64,000 bases of DNA, taken from NCBI RefSeq assembly GCF_964213995.1, contig NC_135810.1, forward strand, positions 67,952,001 through 68,016,000, read 5' to 3'. The stretch comes from Mustelus asterias (Eukaryota). The notes beneath the pieces are model-generated. The model was not told the DNA's origin. It saw only the letters and a program-made list of their open reading frames with translations, and searched no databases. The position numbers and the translations under genes were made by a program. Shown one piece after another: positions 6,111-61,104 of this stretch (the stretch's first letter is position 1; each line of letters starts with the position of its first letter).

Positions 6111-7755
6111 ATAAACACAGTAAGAAGTCCAACAGGTTTATCTGGCAGCACAAGCTTTCGGAGTCTCGCTCTTTCACCAGGTGAGTGAGGACTTGTGTTC
6201 ACAAACAGGGCATATACAGACACAAACTCAATTTACAAGATAATGGTTGGAATGCGAGTCTTTACAGGTAATCAAGTCTTAAAGGTACAGATAATGTGAG
6301 TGGAGAGAGGGCCAAGCCCAAGTTAAAGAGGTGTGCATTGTCTCCAGCCAGGACAGTTAGTGAGATTTTGCAAGGCGAACAATCACTGAAACAACAATAT
6401 GACGACATCAACAAGTTCCATTCCACCATCAGACTCATCATGGACTACTCTCCGGAATCAGTTGCATTCTTGGACACACGCATCTCCATCAAGGAAGGTC
6501 ACCTCAGCACTTCACTGTACTGCAAGCCCACTTATAACCTCACGATGCTCCACTTCTCCAGCTTCCACCCTAAACACGTTAAAGAAGCCATCCCCTACGG
6601 ACAAGTCCTCCATATACACAGGATCTGCTCAGATGAGGAGGATCACAACAGACACCTACAGATGCTAAAAGACGCCCACATAAGAACAGGATATGGCACG
6701 CGACTCATCGATCGACAGTTCCGACGTGCCACAGCGAAAAACCGCACTGACCTCCTCAGAAGACAAACACGAGACATGGCGGACAGAATACCTTCGTCGT
6801 CCAGTACTTCCCCGGAGCGGAGAAGCTATGACTTCTTCTCTGGAGCCTTCAACAGGTCATCGATGAAGACGATCATCTCGCCAAGGCCATCCCCACACCC
6901 CCACTGTTTGCCTTCAAACAACTGCACAACCTCAAACAGACCATTGTCTGCAGCAAACTGTCCAGCCTTCAGGAGAACAGTGACCACGACACCACACAAC
7001 CCTGCCACAGCAACCTCTGCAAGACATGCCGGATCATCGATATGGATGCCATCATCTCACATGAGAACACCATCCACCAGGTACACGGTACATACTCTTG
7101 CGATTTGGCCAACATTGTCCACCTGATACGCTGCAGGAAAAGATGTCCCGAGGCATGGTACATTGGGGAGACCATGCAGACGCTACGACAATGGATGAAT
7201 GAACACCGCTCGACAATCACTAGGCAGGAGTGTTCCCTTCCAGTCGGGGAACAGTTCAGCAGTCACGGGCATTCAGCCTCTGATCTTTGGGTAAGCGTTC
7301 TCCAAGGCGGCCTTCACGACACACGACAGCGCAGAATCACTGAGCAGAAACTGATAGCCAAGTTCCGCACACATGAGGACGGCCTCAATCGGGATCTTGG
7401 GTTCGTGTCACACTATCTGTAACCCCCACGACTTGCCTGGGCTTGCAAAATCTCACTAACTGTCTTGGCTGGAGACAGTACACACCTCTTTAACTTGTGC
7501 TTGGCCCTCTCTTCACTCACATTGTCTGTACCTTTAAGACTTGATTACCTGTAAAGGCTCACATTCCAACCATTATCTTTCAAATTGAGTTCGTGTCTGT
7601 ATATGCCCTGTTTCTGAACACAAGTCCTCACTCACCTGATGAAGGAGTGAGACTCCGAAAGCTTGTGCTGCCAAATAAACCTGTTGGGCTTTAACCTGTT
7701 GTTGTGAGACTTCTTACTGTGCTTACCCCAGTCCAACCCTGGCATTTCCACATCA
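6111..7755 (+). mobile_element. Penelope-like element (Neptune-type), 5'-truncated, with inverted pLTRs
   Basis: RT C-terminus (FLDTRISI..LYCKPT..FHPKHVKEAIPYGQ..RICS), a Cys cluster (PCHSNLCKTC) and GIY-YIG (NIVHLIRC..YIGET..L..MNEH). 6115-6374 is an inverted copy of ~7442-7722. The element is flanked by the duplication CAACTACT (6103-6110 / 7756-7763). Confidence 0.93.
7633..7667 (+). ncRNA. Minimal type I hammerhead ribozyme in the Penelope pLTR
   Basis: CAC-CTGATGA-aGGAG-tgaga-CTCC-GAA-AGCT-T-GTG: intact core boxes, 4-bp stem II, palindromic AGCT stem III and CAC/GTG stem I. Confidence 0.8.
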
Positions 7756-18989: not shown

Positions 18990-19853
18990 CACAGATGCTC
19001 GAGCAGCGCAACAGGCCGGGAGACATCAGTGGAGACAGTTTTGTGGGTTTCCTGCTGGGCGCTTGGGTCTCCGCTCGCCTCTGTGGCAAAGATGAGCATT
19101 TCCATATCATTAGCAGGCCCAGGACTGAAGTTTCAAGGCTCGCTAACATCTCCCTACCAGGCATGGTTCACTCCAGCAGTATTTACAACTACTCCCCACT
19201 AACTGGGAACAGACAGCCCGACCTGGCTGGAGTGAAGAGAGGCCATTGAGGCCCTCCCAGGAGGTCGGAGGAAGGGGGGGTGCCTGCTGGGCAGTGTCAG
19301 CCTGGCCCCCTGGGACTGTCTAAGGGACAAACTGGCAATGCCCTAGAAGCATCTTGGCACTGCCCACCGAGCATCAGGCAGTGCCAAAGGGGCATGGCCA
19401 GCAGGGGTGGGGCCTATTGGGGATAGGACCTATTGGGGACTGATCGGTGGGGGTCCTACTGCCACTCTGCCAGAGGATCGCAGGCAGAGGGATGGAAGAG
19501 GCCTGGAGAAGTCCAGGAGGCCAGTGATTGGGGGGTGGTGGGGCAGCAATGGGGGGGTTGCAGGGCTGGCCAGCAATCTGAAGGCGGCAATGTGGGGCCA
19601 CTGTGCATGAGGCTGATCTCCACTCTGACAGATCGAAGCATGTGCAGTGGTCTGCCCAACGCAATGTTACTAGCCTCTCAGGTGGGAATAGGCCTTGCCC
19701 ACTGATTTTCAGAGTGAATCCCGCTTGGGCACCCTGTGATGCACAGAGTGTGGGTGATTCAAGCTGAAAATCCCGCTGAAAAAAAACACAGGAGTTACTC
19801 CCATTTTCACGCAAAAATTGGGGACTTCAAATTTTTGGGGGAGAATCCTGGCC
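18990..19853. mobile_element. Harbinger non-autonomous element, same family as 63119-63853
   Basis: Colinear similarity with 63145-63853, for example gggagacatcag, ctccccactaac.gggaac and the end gggagaatcctggc. Confidence 0.75.
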
Positions 19854-20019: not shown

Positions 20020-21527
20020 TCCGCAGGGACAAGGGTTAACCACTCAGGAAGTGGCTGATGATGCCTATGTGGAGGCCACAACCACTAGCGGAGACTTGAT
20101 ACAATGAGGCTCATGCTTCAACGTGTGATGGGACTTCTTCAGTCGGCCTTGCAGTCTGAAGAGGGATGCTGTCATCCCTTCCTGATGCTTGCAGTTCCAC
20201 CAACTCTGGACCAACTGGATGAGGGGCACATCATAAGCCAGGGGCCCATCAGAGTCCTGGCCTCTGGCATCCCTCTGAGTGCTAGTTTCCTGGGATGTTC
20301 CTTCCTCCCCCTGCTGTGGATCATCAGCTGTGATGTGTTCACCTGTGAGTGACCCAGAAGCCAGCCTACTTAGTGAACCCGCCAAGGTATAAATAAGTAT
20401 CTGTGCTGGTGCCAGGTGACAGCTGTGATGCATCAATGTGGGGCTTGAGAAGTCTCCCTCGGAGCTGCTCGTATCCGATGGGGTAATGAGGATGGTCCAG
20501 ACTGCTCGGCTGCTTTGCCTGCAAGAGAAGGGAGATGGCATGAGTGCATTACAGGGAATGTGGAGGGAACATTGAATACTCACTTGGAGCTTGAAGAATG
20601 ACTGCGTGTCCTGAGGATTCTCAGATTTGTCTGCTGCCCCGTCATCACCATCAATGGAAGCGCGCTCTTTCTCCTCCCCAGCGAGCTCGAGTGCTTTCTT
20701 CTCAAAGAGTGTGAGGGTTCTGAGCTCCAGCATGAGTCTGGCTGGCTGTGCTTGCTCATGCTTGTTGTGGTTGAGTTTGTCCTGCAATGATACAGATGGG
20801 GAGAGTGTAGGCAGGAGTTGTGAGAGTGAAGATGGTGATGAGTTATGACAGGCATGGGGGCTTGAGTGGGAGCTGAAGTTTAAGGAGCATGGCAGCTAAT
20901 GGAGGGGAAATGGTGATTGGGGGAGGTGGGATGAGGGCCTCGTGCCTGGTGTTGGCAACTCTCGAGTGGCTGGGTGAGAGACGGAGTAGGAGATACGGGG
21001 AGTGTATGAGGGGATCCAGAGAGAGACTGGAAGTGGTTCACTTACCCTAGCTGAGCGAAGAAGATTGTTCATCATCTTCCGACACTGCTGTCCCACCCTC
21101 TTTTGCAGTGAGCTGGCACTCACAAGGACTGCCACTGCATCCCAGGCGGAGGTGGTGACCCTGCTGGAAGGCCGCCTTCTGGAGTGGGGTGTCCCACCTC
21201 TGCTCTACTCCATCCAGCAGTCTGATCAGGGTTCCTTCCAAAAGCGAGGTGCGAACTTCTTGGCTGCCATCCCCTGGGATAGATCTAGAACAAGTGCTGG
21301 GAAGTTGTTTATATAGAGCTCTGCAGTGATTGTTGCAGTTAAGTTATGGCAGTGCGGGTGAATCAGAGGGAGCAGGCTATGAGTGTGGCATGATTTTCAA
21401 GTGCTTAAAAATTTTTACTAATGAGACCGAAGATTCGGTCTGAAATCATGCCGGAGGCATTGGTGGGAATCACTCCATTTTTCACACCAGAACCAACACT
21501 CTGTCAAATTCTCATAAGATTCCACCC
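20020..21527 (-). mobile_element. Harbinger remnant carrying a decayed, intron-containing Myb/SANT-like gene
   Basis: MAAKKFAPRF..LIRLLDGVEQR; VSASSLQKRVGQQCRKMMNNLLRSAR followed by a GTAAGT donor; next exon DKLNHNKHEQ..LTLFEKKALELAG. The terminus gggtggaatctta lies next to TAA. Confidence 0.78.
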
Positions 21528-24091
21528 TTAATGAAACTGTCATTATACTACTATTGTACTGTACTTATTAAAATAACTTGCTACAAATAAAATATTAAAA
21601 TATTCTGCAAATGCCCCAGGAGCAAAACTATGGAGAGTTAAAGTACTTTCTACCTGCCGAGAAGCTATTTTACTGCAAATCATTTCCTATATATAGCTGA
21701 TGGAATGGGCAAATATTTATTTTACAATTAACATTTCTTCCAGGAAACCTATACACTTTTCACACCGGCAGACTAAGTACAGTGCAGTCATAAACTGGTC
21801 TCTGATATTACAAACTGATACTGACATTTACTGAGTTGCTGTCAACTTTAACTTAATCACTTGGTTTATGTACCATTACCCATAATACATAGGCCAGTGG
21901 GCAAGGTCATGAATCCCTTCAGGTTAAAGGAGACTATTTCTGTTTCAAATTACACACTATATCAGTCGCCACATCCTTCCAAAATCTTACCAACAATTGC
22001 AGTGGGTTGACTTTTCTAATTTAGTGGCTAGTTGGTTTACTTTCCTACTTCTGATGTTCAAAATTGACATTAATTCACACATTGGTGCAGTTATATTTGG
22101 AGGAGCTACATAAATACAATGTTTGGCATAATTGTTCATATCATAGAATCAGCACATTTTTCCACATGTGGACCAAGGCTGTGATGCGGTCTGGAGCCAA
22201 GTGGGCCTGATGGAATCCAGACTGACTATCAGTGAATATTGATGAGTTGTTTCACTTACAGCACATCTGACAACGTCTTCCATCACTGTGTTGATTATTG
22301 AGAGTAGACTGATGAGGCAAATTTGTCCTTTTTTTTGTGGATAGCAAATGTCAGGACAATTTTCGACTTTGCCAGGGGGATACCAAAATTATTGCTCTAC
22401 TGGGCAGAGGTGCAGTTATTTCTACAGGACTAGTCTTCAGCACAGCAGCCGACACACCTCTGGGGCATCTAGCCTTTGCCTTATTCAGTGCAATCAGCCA
22501 ATCCTTAATATGGAGTGAATCAAATTGGCTGAAGACTGACTTTTGTGATGTAGGTACCCAAGGAGCAGACCAAGATGAATCAGACTCACTCCTACCAATA
22601 CATGCAAAACAGCATTGTGGTTATGTTACTTGGCTCGTCGTCCAGAAGTCTGGATTACTCTTATAAATTCAAACCCCACCCCAGCTGCTGAGGAATTCCG
22701 GCAATCAAATAAACCTGGAAGAAAAAGCAGATACAGTAATGGTGACCAACAAATTACGAGCTTGTCATAAAACTTACCTGGTTACCTATGCTTTTATTCA
22801 GTCTAGTCTGTATGTTACTTGGCCACAACAAGGTGGTTTTCCTCTGAAAATGTCCTAGCCAGTCGTACCAAACTGCTACAAGAAAGTCGAGGAAAAATAA
22901 AACTGGATGGACCGCACAGCATTAACCCAGGTACCATACAGCCAGAGCACATGCAGCCCAGTCAATCCTACAAAATTCTCCTCCGTGCCATTTGGAGATT
23001 TGTGCAAAATTGGGTGAGCTTTCCCACAGATTAGCCACATTTTCATATATTTCAGCCAAAACCAGACCCTTCCATCACTGTCCTGTCCTGATGGCAGAGT
23101 GGACCCACCAGTGGTGGCATGGCAGCACAGTGGTATAGGAATTTTGGTTTTCATTCACGGGATGTGGGCATCACTGGCCAGTCCAGTATTTGCTGTCCAT
23201 CCCTAATTGCCCTTGAGCTGAGTGGCTTACTAGGCTATTTTGGAGAGCAGTAAAGAGCCAGCCACATTGCTATGGCTCTGGAGTCAATTGTAAAGCAGAC
23301 CAGGTACCCATCTCCAGTATTTTCCTTCCACCTGGACTCTGGCCTCTTAACCATTCGGTCTCTTTATTCAAGGCTGATATTGGTCGTCTCAATTTCTCTG
23401 TATCCCCCACGCTCTTGTCTCCCTCTGAACTTGCAGCTGTCCATTCTTTTAAGACCAGCCCAATCATTTGTTACCAAAGCTGCTTGCAAGGGTGGTGTTG
23501 TTGTTATCTGCCTTACTCACCTCTAGTCAACAGAGGATGAATGGCAACTTTCTGACACTTATCTTCCTCGGAGCATTATGCCACACCTAATATTAAACTA
23601 TTATCTCCAGAACTGTTAGCACTGGAGAGGTTCACTCCTCAACTTCTACTTTCCTCTACTCCAGCATCTACTTTCTCAGAAGACTAAGGAAATTTGGCAT
23701 GTCTGCTACGACTCTCACCAACCTTTACAGATGTACCATAGAAAGCATTCTTTCTGGTTGTATCACAGCTTGGTATGGCTCCTGCTCTGTCCAAGACCGC
23801 AAGAAACTACAAAGGGTCATGAGCGAAGCCCAGTCCATCACTCAAACCAGCCTCACACCCATTGACACTGTCTACACTTCCCACTGCCTCAGCAAAGCAG
23901 CCAGCATAATTAAGGACCCCACGCACCGTGGACATACTTTCTTCCACCTCCTTCCGTTGGGAAAAAGATATAAAAGTCTGAGGACACGTACCAACCAACT
24001 CAAGAACAGTTTCTTCCCTGCTGCCATCAGACTTTTGAATGGACCTACCTCGCATTAAATTGATCTTTCTCTACACCCTAGCTATGACTGT

Positions 24092-25132
24092 GGGCCTGAT
24101 TTTAAAACGGGCCCGAAATCGCGGTAAAGTTGGGCGTCGGGCCTTTAACGCGATCTGCACCTGAATCCGAGCAGATCGCACCTTTACCGACACCCGATTC
24201 GGGTGCGGGTCCGGCGCGCACCCGAATCGGGCGGCCCGACAATTTAAATGCATTTGCATGCATTTCAATCGAATTAATGAACCGCGTGCCCAACTCTACC
24301 GCCAAATCCCACTTTACCGTCTTCTGGCCTGATCCACGTCCGCGCTGCTACCGACCTGCAGTCACAGCTGCAGCCTCCGAAAAGGGGGGTCAGAGACTGC
24401 AACGGCTCTCTGACCCAGGTCATCCTCTGGTCGGGGTGGGAGGAGGAGAGGGGGTGTGACGTCTCATCCCTTGGGAAGTGGGGGGGGGGGGTGGGTGAGA
24501 GGGGAGGGGATGTGACGTATCAACCCCGGAGGGGGGGGAGAGGGGATGTGACGTATCATCCTCTGGTCGGGGGTGGGGGGGGGTCAGCTGCCAGTCTGCA
24601 GCCGATGCCTCCTGGCACCATCGCTGGTACACTACCAGCCACAAATTACTCTTCCCTGCAGGGGCAAGAGAGTGGGAGAGATGGCTGTGGCTGGTAGTGT
24701 ACCAGTGATGGTGTATCCCTTTACACTGTGGAATCGGCCGGTTCTGCTTCATCTTCTTAGCGAGGAATCGCTTCATCCTGAAGGTTTCGTGGGATGGCAT
24801 GGCCGCGCGTCCAGTCCGGCAGGAGGCATCGGCCGCAGACTGGCAGCCGACTCTCCCCGCCCCCCTCGACCAGAGGATGAGACGTCAGAGAGCCGCTCTC
24901 TCCGCTTTCTGCTTTTTTTTTCGAGCCCAGGCGCGCTCTGCCAGATTTTTTTCAAACTGCGCATGCGCAGTTCAGAGCTCCAATTGGTCTGCCAGCGCTA
25001 AGCCCCGCCCACAGCGCGGATCGGGCCGGAGCCGGCAAAACACGTATGGGCGCGCTGGAAAGAGGATTCCAGGTGCGGATCTATTTGATGCCCAGATTCG
25101 GCACTTAGGCTCAAAATGGTAAAATTCCCCCC
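24092..25132. mobile_element. PIF/Harbinger-type non-autonomous element with 3-bp TSD (TGT), containing an RPL39 fragment
   Basis: TIRs gggcctgatttta / taaaattcccccc with TGT on both flanks. The ends are homologous to 59697-61104. CpG-rich, suggesting a young copy. Confidence 0.85.
24726..24800 (-). pseudogene. RPL39: Captured 5' fragment of ribosomal protein L39 (eL39) coding sequence, 25 codons
   Basis: [25 protein letters not shown] versus human RPL39 [25 protein letters not shown] as recalled: 21/25 identical. Similarity stops at the Trp26 position. The ATG is preceded by gcggcc. Confidence 0.9.
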
Positions 25133-25756
25133 TGTAACATTACATTCTGCACTCACTCCTTTCCTTCTCTATGTACGATATGCTTTGTCTGTATAGTGCG
25201 TAAGAAACAATACTTTTCACTGTATACTTATACATGTGACAATAATGAATCAAATCAATTCAAAATTAGTGAACCAGATTGGTTTTTACAGCAATCATGA
25301 ATGTTTCATTGTCATCGTTACTGAGACTAGCTTTCAATTCTAGATATTTTAATAACGATGTCTTGATGGAATTTGATACTGTAGCATCAGACCATTAACC
25401 TGACCCTCTGGGTTGACATTACCACTGTGCCACTATCTCCCTTAAGCCTTGGGCACGCTGAACTTTTGCTCATGACCCCATGAAATTTCTTGGCATCAGG
25501 CAAAACATGGGCAAGGAAACCTCCTTTTAATTACCACCTACCACTTTCCCTCACCCGATGACTCAGTTCTCCTCCATGTTGAAGACTACTTGGAAAATGC
25601 ACTGAAACTAGAAGCTGGTGGACTTAAGAACATCAGAAATAGAAACATTGGTAGACATTTGGCCTGATCTGCCATTCAATAAATCATGGCTGACCTCCTT
25701 CCTCAATTTGACTTTTCCTCATGCTTCTCTTATCCCTTGATTCACTGAAAGACCAG

Positions 25757-33240: not shown

Positions 33241-35236
33241 GTGCCACAGGGATCTGGGATCTCAGCTATTCACAATATATGTTAATGATTTGGATGAGGG
33301 AACAAAATGTAACATCTCAAAGTTTGCAGATGATACCAAGTTGGGTGAACTGTGACGAGGATGCAGAGATCCTTGAGCATGATCTGGACAGGTTGGGTGA
33401 GTGGGCAAATCAATGACAGATGCAGTTTGATTTGAATAAATGTGAGGTTATTCACTTTGGAAGCAAAACCAAGAAGGCAGATTGCTACCTGAATGGCTGT
33501 AAATTGGGAGAGGGGAGTGTGCAATGGGACCTGGGTGTCCTTGTGCATCAGTCACTGAAGATAAGCATATAGGTGCAGCAGGCAGTAAGAAAGGCAAATT
33601 GTATGTTGGCCTTCATTGCGCGAGGTTTTGAGTACAGGAGCAGGGATGTGTTATTGCAATTATACAGAGCCTTGGTGAGGCCACACCTAGAAGATTGTGT
33701 GCAGTTTTGGTCTCCTTTTCTAAGGAAGGATGTTCTTGCGCTCAAGGGAGTGCAGCAAAGGTTTACCAGGCTGATTCCAGGGATGGCGGGACTGATGTAT
33801 GAGGGGAGATTGACTAGGTTAGGATTGTTTTCGCTGGAGTTCAGACAAATGAGGGGGGATCTCATAGAGACTTATAAAATTCTGACAGGACTAGACAGGG
33901 TAGATGCAGGAAGGATGTTCTCGATGGTGGGAGTGCCCAGAACCAGGGGTCACAATCTGAGGATACAGGGTCGACCATTTAGAACAAAGAACAAAAGAAC
34001 AAAGAACAATACAGCACAGGAACAGGCCCTTCGGCCCTCCAAGCCCGCGCCGCTCCCCGGTCCAGGATTGAATCCTGAATCCAGGATCCCCGCCCAATTT
34101 TCCAGCCTATCTACATCCTAATATCCTATCCACCGAGCTGTCCCTCACAGCTACGATGCTTTGTTCATCACAACCTATTAACTCACCCCCACCCCCCCAT
34201 TCCAGACCATGTGATCTCCAGGGAGAGGCGAAAACCCAGAGTGAAAACCCCAGGGCCAATATGGGGAAAGAAATCTGGGAAATTCCTCTCCGACCCCCTG
34301 AGGCGATCGAAACGAGTCCAGGAGATCACACTGGCCCTGATCAGAAAATACTTCCCAACCCTATTCATTTCCACCATCTGAATTCCTTGCCCCCGAGACA
34401 GGTTCCCAACTATCCGCAGTCTCGCTCTGTACTGGCACCAGCAAGATGATCATAGAATGAAGCCTTGAAACGAGAAACAAAGAACAATTAGCCCGCGCCG
34501 CTCCCTGGTCCAAACTAGACCACTCTTTTGTATCCCTCCATTCCCACTCCGTTCATATAGCTGTCTAGATAAGTCTTAAACGTTCCCAGTGTGTCCGCCT
34601 CCACCACCTTGCCCGGCAACACATTCCAGGCCCCCACGACCCTCTGTGTAAAATATGTCCTTCTGATATCTGTGTTAAACCTCCCACCCTTCACCTTGAA
34701 CCTATGACCCCTCGTGAACGTCACCACCGACCCGGGGAAAAGCTTCCCACCGTTCACCCTATCTATGCCTTTCATAATTTTATACACCTCTATTAAGTCT
34801 CCCCTCATCCTCCGTCTTTCCAAGGAGAACAACCCCAGTTTCCCCAATCTCTCCTCATAACCAAGCCCCTCCATACCAGGCAACATCCTGGTAAACCTCC
34901 TCTGTACTCTCTCCAAAGCCTCCACGTCCTTCTGGTAGTGTGGCGACCAGAACTGGACGCAGTATTCCAAATTTAGATCCAAGATGAGGAGACATTTCTT
35001 CACCCTAAGAGTGGCAAGCCTGTGGAATTCATTACCACAGGAAGTAGTTGATGCCAAAACATTAAACGTATTCAAGAAGCGGCTAGATATAGCACTTGGG
35101 CGAATGGGATCAAAGGTTATGGGAAGAAAGCAAGCTTAGGTTATTGAGTTGAATGATCAGACATGATTGTGATGAATGGTGGAGCAGGCTCGAAGAACTG
35201 AATGGCCTCCTCCTACTCCTATCTTCTATGTTTCTA
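33240..35236 (+). mobile_element. CR1 RT-to-3' fragment, interrupted by an antisense CR1 at 33984-34970
   Basis: FTIYVNDLDE..SKFADDTKLG; ORF 33573 LYRALVRPHLEDCVQFWSP..RGHNLRIQGRPFR; it resumes at 34971 with EMRRHFFTLRVASLWNSLP. Confidence 0.92.
33984..34970 (-). mobile_element. Young CR1 3' fragment with an extended 3' UTR; TSD ATTTAGA
   Basis: LEYCVQFWSPHYQKDVEALERVQRRFTRMLPG..TRGHRFKV..FTQRVVGAWN and a (ttctttg)n tail. ATTTAGA occurs at 33977-33983 and 34971-34977. Confidence 0.93.
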
Positions 35237-35237
35237 T

Positions 35238-35760
35238 GGGCCCTATTTTACCATTTTGATTCGAAGTGCTGGGCAGACTTCAAACTGGGAGTGTTTCAGA
35301 TCCGACTTTTAGCCCTGATCTCAGGCACCCCCATATGACTCTGCCTGAAAAAATATCAGCAATTCCAAATCGCGCTGCAGAAGCCTGTGGGCGGGGCATA
35401 ACACGCCCAAAATCCTGCAGCTCCGATCAGCGTCTCCAACTGTGCATGCGCAGAAAAAAAATGATAGAATGCGGCTCCCCTGCCACATCCCTCCCAGACC
35501 GGATAATGCCTCCCCCTGGCCCCCACAAACATTGCCCCACTCCCACAACATTACTGACTCCCTTATCCCTCCACCCCCTCCGCCACCCAGACCCTTCCCC
35601 CTCACTAATCACAGGCAGAGTGGCAACAGAGCCCCCTTCCTCCTCACTAATCATAGGCAGATTGGCATCAGAGCCCCCCTTCTCCCTCACTGATCTCAGG
35701 CAGATTGGCACCGGAACCACCCCCTTCCTCCTCACTGATCTCAGGGAGAGTGGCATAGTT
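35238..35760. mobile_element. Harbinger non-autonomous end, family of 24092 and 59697
   Basis: TIR gggccctattttaccattt, a tgtgcatgcgcag motif and ~36-bp tandem subrepeats (ctcactaatcacaggcaga). Confidence 0.75.
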
Positions 35761-35799
35761 CTTCTCTAGCTCTCTTTATTAGGACTCCACCCTCCCCAT

Positions 35800-38760
35800 C
35801 AGATTTGGGAACAGTAGGCATAATCTTGTCTGAAACCTCTGTTGGAGTCATTGTGTGAGGGATAGTCCCATAAACGAATAGAAATCGCGCCAGTTTGGTC
35901 TACATGGATGCTGCAGATTGCTTCTTCATGCCAAGCTTCAAAGTCTCCACCACCTGTTCAGCCATCCAGTTTGAAGACTGATGATAGGGTGCTGTCCTAA
36001 CGCGTTTGATTCCATGGAAAGTATGAAGGTCCGAAACTCGGTGCTAGTAAAGTGCCACTGTTAGAGACCAGGACTTCAGGTATCCTGTGCATGCAGAAAC
36101 TTTGTCATAGTTTCTCAATGGTAGCATGGGAAGCGGTGGAGCTCATGCAATACATCTCCAACTACTTGGAATGTGTGTCAACCATAATTATGAACATGGA
36201 ACCCATAAAGTGCCTGGTAAGGTTTACATGCACTCGCACCCAGGGCCAACCAGGCCACTCGCACGGATGTAGAAAGGCAGAGAAGGGGAGATTTTGGTTT
36301 TCCTGGCATAACTCACACTGTCTGACCAAGTCTGTAATGTCTGCACCACCATGCGTAACTCCTGGCTGGCATTTTACTTTTGAAATGCCAGAGTGGCCAT
36401 GGTGTAATTCCATAAGAATTGGATATCACTCTGGGTGACAAACAACTACGTGGGAACCCCAGAGGATAATCCCATCCTCAACACTGTGTTGTCTTTCTTT
36501 GTCAGATAAAGTTTCATTTCATCCAAGGGCTGCCCTCTGAATCCCCCATGTAATGTAATATGTTTTAATTTAGATAGGATCGGGTCCTTTTGCATCTAGC
36601 CTTGATTTGCCTTGCAGAAACCAGCAGGGTGTCCAAAAATTGAGGGTCATCATGACCTCTTCCACAGCTGGTAACAAAGCCAAGCTTGTGGGCAACATCA
36701 GACAACTCAGTGCATTGGGCGTTAGCTATCTGGGTCCTGGTGCAGTACACTAGGAGGTATTCATAAGCTGCCAGTAACAAGGCCCAATGATGTATCTGGG
36801 TGGAGGCAATGGGGGGTATTGCCTTGTCGTCTTTACAAAGTCCCAGCAACGGTTTATGATCAGTTACTGCATTCCCATGCAATCAAAACAAAATTGGTCT
36901 GGATTTGTAGTGGCAGGGCATCTAACAACACCTGCTGATTGCTAGACTTGTCCTTGCACATTTGTAAAACTTGCATTTAGAGAGCACTTTTCATGACCAT
37001 CAGAGGCCCCAAAATGCTTTACAGCTATTGAAATCCTTATGAGGTGTAGTTGCCGTTTTAATGTAGGAAACACAGCAGGCAGTATGCACACAAAAGCTCC
37101 CGCAAGCAGTGATATGCAGTAGGGGTGTTGGTTTTCACAGTGCAGTCTGTGGTAGATTACAGACCACCAATTCTGAAAGTTATGGTCTGTCTCAGAGGAG
37201 TAACGACAAATGAACACTGACAGTTTAATCCTCAAAAACCCTGCAAAGTCCAGACCACTGTGAAGAGTAACCGGGAAGAAAATGTAAATTAAAGTAGGCG
37301 AAGACAACTGCCAACCCCTCTTTCTCGATTTGGGAATACCTCCGTTCAGTGTCCAAGAGGGTCCAAGATGTATACGCAATAGGCTTATCTGTTCGAGCTT
37401 TCCAGCGGTGTGCCAACACTGCCCCAACTCCGTAAGGGGGGAGCACCACATGCCAGGATGTGGTCCTTTGTGGCTCAAAATGGGCCAATACATTAGAGGA
37501 CAAAATCCACTGTTTAACACTGTTGAAAGTCTCCAGCTGCACCCACCCCTCCCCCCAGACCATCTTTGATGTTTCTGCAGCAGGGCATGTAAGAGGGCCA
37601 GTAAGGAAACCAAATTCGTAATAAATTTCCCGTAATAATTCACTAACCCCAGGAAGAATTTCAATTCTGTGCAGTTCCTTAGAGTTGGCACCTCCTTAAT
37701 GGTCCTTACTTTATCCTCCACTGGATGAAGGTCCTTGCCATCACACAATAGCCCAAATAGGTCTCGGCATTTGCTTGGAAGACACATTTTTCTCTTTTCA
37801 AGCGTACCTCGACCTCCAAGAATCGCTTTAAGACCTCTTCCAGGTTTTCTAGATGTTTGCTTTCCAAGGTACTTGTGACTAAGACGCAGCTCAGATACAC
37901 TGCTACCTGAGGTAACCCTTGAAGTATATTCTCCTTGACCAGTAGAAAAATGATGAATGCGGACGAGTCCTCAAAGGGCAGGCGAGTGTACACATATAGG
38001 CCTTTGTGCGTATTAATTGTCACATACATCCGAGAAGGCTCGTCTAATTCAAGTTGGTGATATGCCTGGCTCATGTCCAACTGAGAGAATACTTGGCCAC
38101 CAGTTAACCTGACGTACAGGTCTGCAATCTGGGGAATGGGGTATTTGTCAAGTTTAGAAATCTGATTGACAGTAAGCTTGTAGTCTCCACAAAATCGGAC
38201 TGGCTTATCCAGCTTGAAAACAGGAACAACAGTGCAGCCCTCTCTGCGAATTGTATGGCCTTATTATGCCCAGGTTTTTCCAGGCATTCTAGTTCCAACT
38301 CTGCTTTTCCAATAGGGCATATGGAACTGGTGTCGCTCTAAAATACTTAGGCAAAGCATTGGAGTTGATGTAGATCTTAGCTTTGGCTCCCCTTATTTTT
38401 CCAAGTCCTTCCTGGAAAACTTCAGGGTACTTGTTGATGACTTCATTCAGTCCCCCCACACCCAGCCTAAAGACATCCAGCCAGTTCAATCTGATTTGCT
38501 GGAGTCAATCTCTCCCCAGAAGGCAAGGATTTTGACCCCATGTAATAATGAGTGGAAGTCGAGTTGACTGCTGCCTGTAAGTCACTTGGGTCGCCGTGGT
38601 GCCCTTTATCTGTACTGGTTCCCCTGTGTACGTGGCCAGCCTGACCCTTGTGTCTTCTCAGCTCAGAACCTGAATACCAGCCTGGAAGCAATCATAAGCC
38701 TGCTCCCCGATAACAGAGACCTCAGCTTTCTTGCATTCCAAATTGTGTTCTGCCAATACT
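35800..38760 (-). mobile_element. Decayed Gypsy/Ty3 LTR retrotransposon pol (RT, RNase H, integrase)
   Basis: YPEVFQEGLGKIRG, DMSQAYHQLELDE..TINTHKGLY.YTRLPF, FLGLVNYYGKF, YGVGAVL..PIAY.S..ERRYSQIEKEGLAVVF, TDHKPLLGL, LH.GH.G..CELCQ and PW.RVHV..MVDTHSK. Many frameshifts. Confidence 0.92.
36965..37115 (-). mobile_element. DeuSINE (AmnSINE1/SacSINE1-like) 3' fragment
   Basis: The minus strand reads gcttgcgggagcttttgtgtgcatactgcctgctgtgtttcctacattaaaacggcaactacacct..gctgtaaagcattttggg..aaatgcaagt, resembling the DeuSINE 3' region as I recall it. Confidence 0.55.
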
Positions 38761-48323: not shown

Positions 48324-49418
48324 AATCAGTAATGTGTGGAATAGATATCCCAGTGCCTAATGTGAAGAATGCATCAGATTAGTGTCGGGCATATTCAGAT
48401 GTCATGTAACCAATTAGATAAAGAAACGCCTGTGAAAAAGAATTATGTCCCTATTAAAGTTATACCAGGGACTCTAATGTCCATCCTTCAACCTTTAGAT
48501 ACATGCCTCAACAAGTCTCTCAAGAATCTAGTCTGTGCCAGCTGGAATAGGCGGTGGCTGACAGTGAGAGAAAAAAAACTTCAGAAAGAGTTGAAATATG
48601 TGTGCTGCCCACTTGATTGTTTGTGTGATTTCATCATGAAATCGTGGGATGCTATTTGTGCACCAAATGTCATCAGATCATTTAAAAAATGCAACAAATC
48701 AAATTTAGGTGGATGGAGAGGAAGATGATTTATTGTGGTCAGATGTTTCTGAGAGTGAAAACACCAAATTTGATCCAGAGGGCAATCCTTATATCTGAAG
48801 TGACTCAGAATGAACTTAATGAACTCTTGCATCAGATGTCACAGATGATTAATTTGACAGTTTTAAAATGCTTTGATACTGATTAAAGTAAATTGTACAA
48901 TGAATTCATTCCATAATCCATGACACATTAATTTAATATGAATGACTGGTGTTGTGTTTGCTTTTACATTACAAAATGGTAACCACCCATGCCCAAACCG
49001 GCAGTTCACATTTTATACTCAGCAAACAAGTTGACCTCAGCTTTGGAAGGGTTTTTGGATGCTTCAAAGGTCAACTTGTATGCTGCGATCTACTTTAGAT
49101 TAACACCTTTGCTAAAATTGCAGGAATATCATACCATGACGTTCACAGTAAATGTTCATATACAAATAATCCTTTCGCTTTAGCTGGACTCCCACACTTT
49201 TCCCCATAACTTTTGACATTTTCCACCTTCCAATGAACTCAATATGATATCAGGTCCCTTTCCCATTGCTATACACAATGATCTTATGTGACATCTCCAT
49301 TTTGGCCTTGACCATGTTCCTGATATGTCTGATACAGCACCGTAATGAACCCCTATACTGACATCTCCAACCTTAGATCTTTTAATAGAAGGAGTCAGCT
49401 AATCCAAACATTCCGTTG

Positions 49419-59572: not shown

Positions 59573-59696
59573 GTGGTGGAAGGGTATTTGGCAGAGTAAT
59601 GTGGGGCTGGAGGATAGTACTCCCCACAATTTGATGTAGAGAAGAATCTGGAAGGAGCCAGCATGGAGACAGCACCCATGCATAGCAGTACTCATA

Positions 59697-61104
59697 GGGC
59701 CCGATTTTACCAATGCGCGGGTGCGAAAACCTGGTAAAGTCGGGTGTGAGGCCATTAACACGATCCGTGCCCACGTCTGCGCAGATTGCCACTTTACAGA
59801 AACCCGGGAATGGCGGCAATCCGCTTCGTGCCCAAAACGGGCGCAACGGCGATTTAAATGCATTTGCATGTATTTAAATTGAATTATTGAACTGCCCGCC
59901 CAACTTTATCAGCATTTCCCCCTTTATCACCGCGTTTGCCAATCTGGAACCGCGCCGTAATGGACCTGCTAAATAAAAGTCTGAATCGGGCGCTCCAGTT
60001 TCTGAAGAGCGCATTCAGAGCTTCCAATGGCTCTCTGACTCAGATCAGTGGTGGAGGGGAGGAGGGAGGCGGGTCAGATCATTCCCTGGTTGGGGGGGGG
60101 GGGGGGGGGGCGGGGGGGAGGAGAGTGAGACCAGATCGTTGTCTGGAGGGGGGGGGGGTGAGTGAGCGAGGCCAGATTGTTGTCTGGAGGGGGGCGGGGG
60201 GGAGGCCCAATCGTTCACTGGTGGGGGAGGAAGCAGATGGATCATAGAATCATAGAATCCCTACAGTGCAGAAACAGGCCATTCGGCCCATCAAGTCTGC
60301 ACCGATCACAATCCCACCCAGGCCCTACTCATTTTAATCCCTCTAACCTACGCATCTCAGGACACTAAGGGGCAATCTTAGCATGGCCAATCAACCTAAC
60401 CCGCACATCTTTGGACTGTGGGAGGAAACTGGAGCACCCGGAGGAAACCCACGCAGACACGAGGAGAATGTGCAAACTCCACACAGACAGTGACCCAAGC
60501 CAGGAATCGAACCCAGGTCCCTGGAGCTGTGAAGCAGCAGTGCTAACCACTGTGCTACCGTGCCGCCCGATCTCTGGTGCGGAGGGGGGAGGCAGATGGA
60601 TCTCTGGTGGGGGTGCGGGGGGCGGGCTGGGGGGTCCACTGCCACTCTGCGGATGATCAGTGGGGGGGGGGAAGAGGGCAGGGGTAGCGATCGATCTGGG
60701 TAGTGGGGGGGGGTGGATAAGGGGGACAGTGATGTGTGTGGGTAGTGGGGTGGGTGGATAAGGGAGACAGTGATGTGTGTGGGTAATGGAGGGGGGGTGA
60801 TTAAGGGGGACAGTAATGTCTATGGGGGCCATCGCTCCTGCTTTTCGCTCCCGGGCCGTTTTCTCCGCTTTCTGCGGCCCGGGAACCATCTGACATGGGC
60901 GCGCTTTTTCAAATTTTTTTCCAACTGCGCATGCGCAGTTCAGAGCTCCGATCGTTCCGGCCGCACTCAGCCCCGCCCACAGCGCGAATGGGACTGGAGA
61001 TGTTTTTTTCAGGCTGTATGGGAGCGCCTGAAAGCAGATTTCTAAATCGGATCTGCATTACGCCCAGATTCAGCACTTTGAATGAAAATGGTAAAATCGG
61101 GCCC
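59697..61104. mobile_element. PIF/Harbinger non-autonomous element, perfect 16-bp TIRs, 3-bp TSD ATA
   Basis: gggcccgattttacca / tggtaaaatcgggccc with ATA flanks. Internal G-rich tandem subrepeats; the ends are homologous to 24092-25132. Confidence 0.9.
60241..60568 (-). mobile_element. HE1-like SINE inside the Harbinger element
   Basis: Full-length copy with GATC at both junctions. Confidence 0.93.

Follow-up and report, generated by a model that had tools for sequence, protein, structure and literature searches.

The capture of host gene sequence by cut-and-paste transposons has been surveyed across animals (Tan et al., 2021; PMC8277862). Captures were almost always single-copy, with four of the 370 cases, termed Pack-TIRs, being multicopy and the example shown having three copies, according to the portion of that paper drawn on here. 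PIF-Harbinger Pack-TIRs, from frogs and alligator, occupy 21 rows of its Supplementary Data 1; zero Pack-TIRs and zero PIF-Harbinger elements are given for the elephant shark in that same portion, and RPL39 appears in none of 12 supplementary files. By design, the survey discarded captures lacking introns where the parent gene has several exons. As the route of capture, template switching at short words common to both sequences was proposed there.

A ribosomal protein mRNA copy amplified within a DNA transposon is known from bat Helitrons, namely, RPLP0 in HelibatN424 (Thomas et al., 2014; PMC4224331). As given in the sections of that report used here, RPLP0 reached six copies, four retroposed mRNAs reached 118 copies together and genomic 5' captures reached about 5,000 copies, with retroposition into an element being separated from the capture of an existing retrogene. 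Turmoil-1 of Caenorhabditis elegans, a Harbinger-superfamily element, has long inverted repeats within which fragments of host coding sequence are found (Sela et al., 2008; PMC2572040). Finally, plant Pack-TYPE elements, including Pack-PIF, comprise PIF/Harbinger elements with captured DNA, forming clusters of more than 100 in maize (Gisby and Catoni, 2022; PMC8903248).

The locus considered here, element 1, resembles the animal Pack-TIRs in being a non-autonomous terminal inverted repeat (TIR) element holding some 200 bp of a host gene, yet differs in its cargo, a piece of RPL39 that resembles a message, folds back on itself and likely occurs in the thousands. Element 1 appears to work like a multicopy Pack-TIR, although its intron-free cargo places it outside the definition used in the survey. 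The bat elements differ in being rolling-circle rather than TIR cut-and-paste transposons, in keeping poly(A) and target duplications and in having no fold-back. Turmoil-1, in turn, is autonomous, has nine copies listed, contains an rsp-2 piece that keeps its intron, indicative of a DNA donor, and carries its cargo duplicated in both terminal repeats rather than in an internal fold-back, whereas the Pack-TYPE elements are from plants and are described in a main text that, in the part available, mentions neither mRNA nor introns. Pack-type capture by a vertebrate Harbinger element is, as such, already known; mRNA-derived cargo at such copy number, or this element itself, was not found in print in a search of openly accessible papers, and the family may be deposited in Repbase or Dfam without its cargo being noted. 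The main text of the Squalomix preprint contains none of the terms 'Harbinger', 'DNA transposon' or 'pseudogene'. In the present case, a housekeeping gene appears to have contributed a message-derived piece that became a standing part of a large shark transposon family common to two organisms.

The window, i.e., the whole 64-kb stretch of DNA analysed, contains element 1 and a relative, element 2 (Table 1). As the initial annotation had proposed, element 1 is flanked by a target-site duplication, with TGT being found on both sides; ATA flanks element 2. Elements 1 and 2 are 66.5% alike across an aligned stretch of 424 nt on the left and 74% alike across one of 196 nt on the right, and sequence alignment revealed no RPL39 match in element 2, the earlier description of which as a cargo-free copy was thus upheld. 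The terminal repeats of element 2 match at 16 of 16 positions and those of element 1 at 10 of 16, with patchy likeness extending to approximately 60 nt. At the right terminus of element 1, four of the last seven letters differ from the family majority in the contig alignment described below.

Element 1 is likely a Harbinger element, an assignment drawn solely from its ends and the 3-bp duplications. PIF/Harbinger elements make 3-bp target-site duplications (PMC9179366; PMC2572040, the latter as excerpted). At 16 nt, the terminal repeats starting with GGG are shorter than the 25-50 bp usual for PIF/Harbinger. Other Harbingers have duplications of the TAA/TTA or CWG types, with TGT and ATA being neither. 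No transposase partner sharing the 16-nt ends was found within the 64-kb window. A decayed Myb/SANT-like frame at 20899-21204 matches Pfam Myb_DNA-bind_4 weakly (E 0.071) and has no link to the element ends; more broadly, the decayed frames on the minus strand at 20065-21400 resemble a Harbinger-type Myb/SANT partner gene.

Table 1. Features of the cargo-bearing element and of its cargo-free relative (positions are those of the window).
Feature	Position	Strand	Remarks
Left 3-bp target-site duplication TGT	24089-24091	+	Identical triplet at 25133-25135
Element 1, non-autonomous TIR element, Harbinger-like, with RPL39 cargo	24092-25132	.	1041 bp
Left terminal inverted repeat, 16 nt	24092-24107	+	Begins GGG
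G-rich head-to-tail units, native to element 1 interior	24403-24584	+	Like units in element 2
Left outer arm	24549-24614	+	24578-24599 has same-strand homologue in element 2 (60629-60650); last 7 nt repeat leader end in reverse
Inverted duplicate of part of RPL39 3' UTR (left stem of inner hairpin)	24616-24644	+	Majority alleles at 24623 and 24644 make stem perfect
Part of hairpin loop	24645-24666	.	Possibly more 3' UTR; two linked subfamily variants, 24663 and 24666
RPL39 3' UTR, including right stem (24686-24713) of inner hairpin	24667-24720	-	X10 letters 176-234 on 24667-24725, one difference
End of last RPL39 codon and stop codon	24721-24725	-	TG at 24725-24724 is word shared at 76-nt deletion; X2 loose ends 24724/24725
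RPL39 codons 1-25 plus 2 nt of codon 26	24724-24800	-	Met9 family-wide; Glu5 private to element 1
RPL39 5' leader, 81% G+C	24801-24826	-	First letter of X10 contig lies on 24825
Right outer arm, inverted copy of left interior of element	24820-24895	-	In one family branch
Element 1 right half, common to element 2	24896-25132	+	Ends in degenerate terminal repeat 25117-25132
Right 3-bp target-site duplication TGT	25133-25135	+	
Element 2, cargo-free relative	59697-61104	+	Perfect 16-nt terminal repeats, ATA duplication, nested SINE-like repeat

Contigs from public sequencing runs were aligned to positions 24586-25160 at 80% likeness. Four of 20 candidate runs, of which none was listed as RNA and the best had a share of 0.46, were used, namely, X2 and X8, coming from two studies of organism A, X5 from organism B and X10 from organism C; the remaining 16, including organisms D, E and F and metagenome rows with small shares, were left out. 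X2 may stem from the same study as the window, with X5 and X8 giving the same picture without it. X10 covers 8 of 29 bins, none of these in the right half of the element; its RNA nature is a guess, its records may be filtered, and its coverage pattern is not taken to speak for either transcription or a free pseudogene. When metagenome contigs were scanned by pattern, no hits were obtained with 30 letters, while the seven obtained with 18 letters are ascribed to chance, given that they match no longer than 19-20 letters.

On the minus strand of element 1, a 26-residue peptide (24723-24800) matches Pfam PF00832 (27.3 bits vs. a curated cut-off of 21.6; E 2.9e-6) as well as 43 eL39 sequences in the PDB, with the best single-domain matches having E values of about 1e-9. 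The ATG (24800-24798) is joined straight to codon 2. Pro2 and Met17 of the cargo are those of named cartilaginous-fish RPL39, the vertebrate PDB match shown having Ser2 and Gln17, and, judged from its sequence, the cargo derives from host-type (cartilaginous-fish) RPL39. When the leader was read in frame with the majority alleles, six of eight residues matched those preceding the Met of catshark protein P0002; as such, the GC-rich leader is taken to be RPL39 5' UTR.

The first 25 codons and the GC-rich leader had been recognized in the initial annotation and both stand, but the cargo does not end at codon 25. Instead, the leader and codons 1-26 are followed colinearly by the last codon, the stop codon and at least 54 nt of 3' UTR, reaching at least to 24667; between codon 26 and the last codon, 76 nt are deleted from the element 1 copy, between two TG words. 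Indeed, a 234-nt X10 contig aligns with letters 1-102 on 24825-24724 and letters 176-234 on 24725-24667, with 73 letters in between and four differences in all, while X2 contigs with loose ends at 24724 and 24725 read, upon hand translation, as RPL39 codons 26-35 and the last codons. Because the X10 contig carries colinear 3' UTR at this position, the right stem of the inner hairpin is assigned to the host 3' UTR and the left stem to an inverted duplicate thereof. In this manner, a host-derived span of approximately 210 bp (24616-24826), exceeding the 100 bp by which a Pack-TIR is recognized, lies between left and right parts of one TIR element that are both homologous to element 2. The earlier proposal of Pack-type capture of host RPL39 by a vertebrate DNA transposon is thus borne out. 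Of the open frame of 126 codons that runs from the cargo ATG through the repeats, support was obtained for the first 25 codons and for nothing further, while the 5, 2, 6 and 0 hits of the protein searches included no annotated read-through product of other cargo copies. Most likely, the cargo is neutral freight from which no protein is made.

The initial annotation had also argued for a spliced template, given that in human RPL39 the ATG ends exon 1. The descent of the cargo from a spliced message gained indirect support from its colinear parts, from the X10 contig, in which leader, whole coding region and 3' UTR are uninterrupted, and from whale shark RPL39 isoform P0005, where other sequence is joined directly to codon 2, as a splice acceptor at this point would give; the latter is consistent with an intron after the ATG. 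A literature search for the RPL39 exon structure gave no confirmation of the intron position, and named 'RPL39-like' proteins occur in several sharks, two points that would suit a cargo taken at the DNA level, without passing through RNA, either from the gene with its introns or from a working paralogue that has none. The X10 contig and P0005 speak against this reading, as does the consideration that an intronless paralogue would itself be a retrocopy, and such an origin is deemed very improbable. The cargo likely descends from a spliced RPL39 message.

That RNA or cDNA served directly as template is unlikely. Codon 9 specifies Met in the cargo and in the X10 contig, whereas Ile is found in all 12 named cartilaginous-fish RPL39 proteins examined (P0001-3, P0005-7, P0010-12 and P0015-19, minus the mammalian ones). 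Moreover, coordinate arithmetic places the stop codon of the X10 contig 155 nt from the ATG instead of 156. This spacing and Met9 speak against the contig being a working mRNA. In X2, the loose end at 24724 (eight contigs, agreement 1.0) reads Tyr33 by hand translation, and an unnamed protein, P0004, has both Met9 and Tyr33. P0004, an unnamed ENA record from a 645-nt contig, has an RPL39-like start with unrelated sequence after codon 34 and is probably another relic of a decayed Met9 lineage. Because of Met9 and of the apparently frameshifted, intronless Met9 contig, a processed pseudogene is considered a likelier donor than RNA or cDNA used directly. The X10 contig could, though, be an early undeleted family member, in which case Met9 would have arisen inside the element, leaving room for direct retroposition.

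According to that alternative, RPL39 mRNA would have entered a single copy of the element directly, either through reverse transcription by a LINE enzyme or as an RNA or cDNA repair patch, with Met9, the deletion and the fold-back arising later in this founder before its amplification. Ribosomal-protein mRNAs have a pyrimidine run at their 5' end, and the cargo begins with such a run within one letter of the start of the X10 contig. The GAT(C/G) word present at both cargo ends could be what remains of a target duplication, reverse-transcriptase remnants are found in the window, and the bat Helitrons with RPLP0 provide a precedent (PMC4224331, in the part considered). On the other hand, no poly(A) tract was found in 24600-24830 and, apart from the GAT(C/G) word, a target duplication of the retrocopy's own is absent; a later fold-back could have overwritten the tract. 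Plain target-primed insertion, moreover, yields neither opposed 7-nt leader ends nor a duplicated 3' UTR, which a fold-back could likewise mask. Direct retroposition is, on balance, unlikely, although it carries more weight than the other alternatives. The decayed retrocopy is accordingly kept here as the preferred donor, at the level of a probable reading.

Turning to the fold-back, the inverted arms of approximately 67 bp noted earlier around the fragment (24549-24614/24820-24887; 66 and 68 nt) are indeed reverse complements, at 86.8% over 68 columns (E 3.5e-17), and the span that includes both arms folds at z = -15.6, with none of 100 shuffles being as good. Inside these, the hairpin of 28 bp formed by 24616-24643 and 24686-24713 is 96% complementary (z = -8.0 and -7.0). 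Among 13 Rfam matches, none reached the gathering score, the best miRNA attaining 30 bits vs. 100. While the two outer arms exist as described, the inner hairpin arm corresponds to host 3' UTR rather than transposon sequence. The left outer arm is native element sequence, since its same-strand homologue sits in the cargo-free element 2. As most of the coding part lies in a side loop, the double-stranded host-derived part amounts to 28-29 bp of 3' UTR.

The right outer arm seems to be restricted to a single branch of the family. The share of depth at 24814 that continues at 24827 into the right arm is 44%, 13% and 14% in the three runs, figures that G/C runs may also have lowered, and one listed contig each from X5 and X8, hence from two organisms, leaves at 24826 into a common other sequence. 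By eye, the sequence beyond 24826 resembles the family's G-rich unit in element 2 at 60209; for this reason, the possibility that the loose end at 24826 leads into host upstream sequence was dropped. We infer a second subfamily without the outer arm, perhaps larger than the armed one.

The steep drop in depth at the leader end, the X5 and X8 contigs leaving at 24826 and the continuation of only 13-44% of the depth into the right arm could also be read as signs that the hairpin derived from RPL39 moves or is amplified independently, as a SINE-like or tandem unit, and merely sits inside a DNA transposon. This is improbable, given that depth continues leftward into the arm with a homologue in the cargo-free element 2 (206,000 at 24606-24625 in X2), that no loose end at 24614-24616 is found among the 18 listed, that the alternative right flank is the same in two organisms rather than varied and resembles the family's own G-rich unit, and that neither a tRNA head nor a tail is seen.

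Amplification of the cargo together with its element was next considered. Contigs aligning over the 575 bases numbered 6618 in X2, 1964 in X5 and 134 in X8, and the ratio of summed contig depth in the coding part to that at the right end of the element was 0.58, 0.67 and 0.62, respectively. Relative to the median for the eight long pieces listed in each run, depth in the coding part is about 9600-fold (X2), 2200-fold (X5) and 66-fold (X8); these values are not copy numbers, and overlapping short contigs inflate summed contig depth. Cargo copies per genome likely run into the thousands, a figure to which depth only points. Six majority cargo alleles (24623, 24644, 24673, 24788, 24807 and 24814), one of which restores Lys5, are identical in organisms A and B and differ from the element 1 copy; they are carried by 48-81 contigs in X2 and by 20-36 in X5. 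In each of the three runs, the linked variants at 24663 and 24666 account for 16-31% of depth, revealing subfamily structure.

The listed pieces, 26 of 8762, include three that bridge the coding part and the right arm with 11-15 differences (X2 records 2 and 3; X8 record 18) and three that bridge the right arm and the right half (X2 records 4-6). At 25125, 68 X2 contigs leave, sharing a common terminus beyond which agreement falls to 0.52, a pattern pointing to many insertion sites for the wider family; these contigs may include cargo-free relatives. A multicopy Pack-TIR is defined by one chimeric junction recurring at sites with distinct target duplications; here, the same junctions are found in diverged contigs and varied flanks are found for the wider family, with none of the 26 listed pieces (of 8762) spanning cargo, terminus and flank together. 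Cut-and-paste transposition likely spread the cargo-bearing copies themselves. The continuous depth and the lack of a top-ranked loose end at 24724/5 in X5 and X8 suggest that the 76-nt deletion is common to many copies; in X2, undeleted ends are among the six loose ends listed, and the X2 joint at 24725-24730, which has unknown letters in between, was not counted for the deleted form.

The presence of a single cargo-bearing copy in the 64-kb window would be in line with a one-off insertion and rearrangement confined to element 1. This is scarcely credible in light of the dozens of distinct contigs, the majority alleles common to two organisms and the diverged bridging contigs. As far as contig sequences can tell, element 1 is one copy of an amplified cargo-bearing family, as the initial annotation had suggested in speaking of a gene-fragment-carrying subfamily.

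Taken together, we consider it probable that a decayed RPL39 retrocopy was captured by template switching with fold-back, then deleted in part, and spread as neutral freight by a transposase acting in trans. What is seen is the colinear series of leader, coding start, coding end and 3' UTR inside the element. RPL39 mRNA would first have been retrocopied, with the copy gaining Met9 (and Tyr33). A polymerase repairing or replicating the G-rich, hairpin-prone interior of the element would then have switched to this retrocopy, and fold-back would have duplicated 28-29 bp of 3' UTR and the 7-nt leader end prior to return to the element. The loss of 76 nt between two TG words, visible in element 1, may be common to many copies. 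The right outer arm may have arisen in one branch, when an additional switch copied the left interior. Diverged copies with common junctions and linked variants are present in the contigs, and their spread would have relied on transposase supplied in trans.

The coexistence of undeleted and deleted forms, with and without the outer arm, offers a dated series for reading capture and fold-back, and the family lends itself naturally to testing whether a transposon is shielded by host-like cargo against silencing through small RNAs. In this respect, one putative and rather doubtful idea is that the perfect RPL39 3' UTR stem of 28-29 bp, present in thousands of copies, yields hairpin-derived small RNAs matching the mRNA of RPL39, an essential ribosomal protein, such that the cargo drove the success of the family, with the host being unable to silence the element without hitting RPL39 or having adopted the hairpin to tune RPL39. 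If true, a vertebrate transposon would here be using a host message as its shield. On the practical side, work with RPL39 reads, primers or annotations in these genomes has to reckon with competition from a great many look-alike copies.

Repeats make up most of the remaining 64-kb window. Element 2 contains a SINE-like insertion (60237-60575) with matches at nine other places in the window; the repeat is approximately 340 nt in length, the longer matches being 71-92% alike. A third member of the terminal-repeat family is found in reverse orientation at 35238-35800, directly after a LINE-like 3' end and preceded by TAT; its second end was not located. The triplets at 24089-24091, 35235-35237 and 59694-59696 are each preceded by C (C-TGT, C-TAT and C-ATA) and, with two of the three sites lying in LINE tails, this possibly reflects a target preference. 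Element 1 is bracketed at a distance by a 28-nt inverted match of 82% (23800-23827/25465-25492), probably corresponding to two LINE pieces in opposite orientations. Further G-starting ends that resemble the terminal repeats, with A/T-rich flanking triplets, occur at 19853, 31222, 42030, 57670 and 63119, and several other small TIR families are present in the window. Broken LTR-retrotransposon-like pol pieces are found on the minus strand at 36945-38260 (RVT_1, E 3.2e-13; RT_RNaseH_2, E 1.3e-16) and a DDE_1 (pogo/Tigger-type) transposase remnant on the plus strand at 48366-48728 (E 4.1e-5). Finally, plus-strand frames at 6272-7422, for which no Pfam hit was obtained at E 0.01, resemble a Penelope-like element in its reverse-transcriptase end and its GIY-YIG portion.
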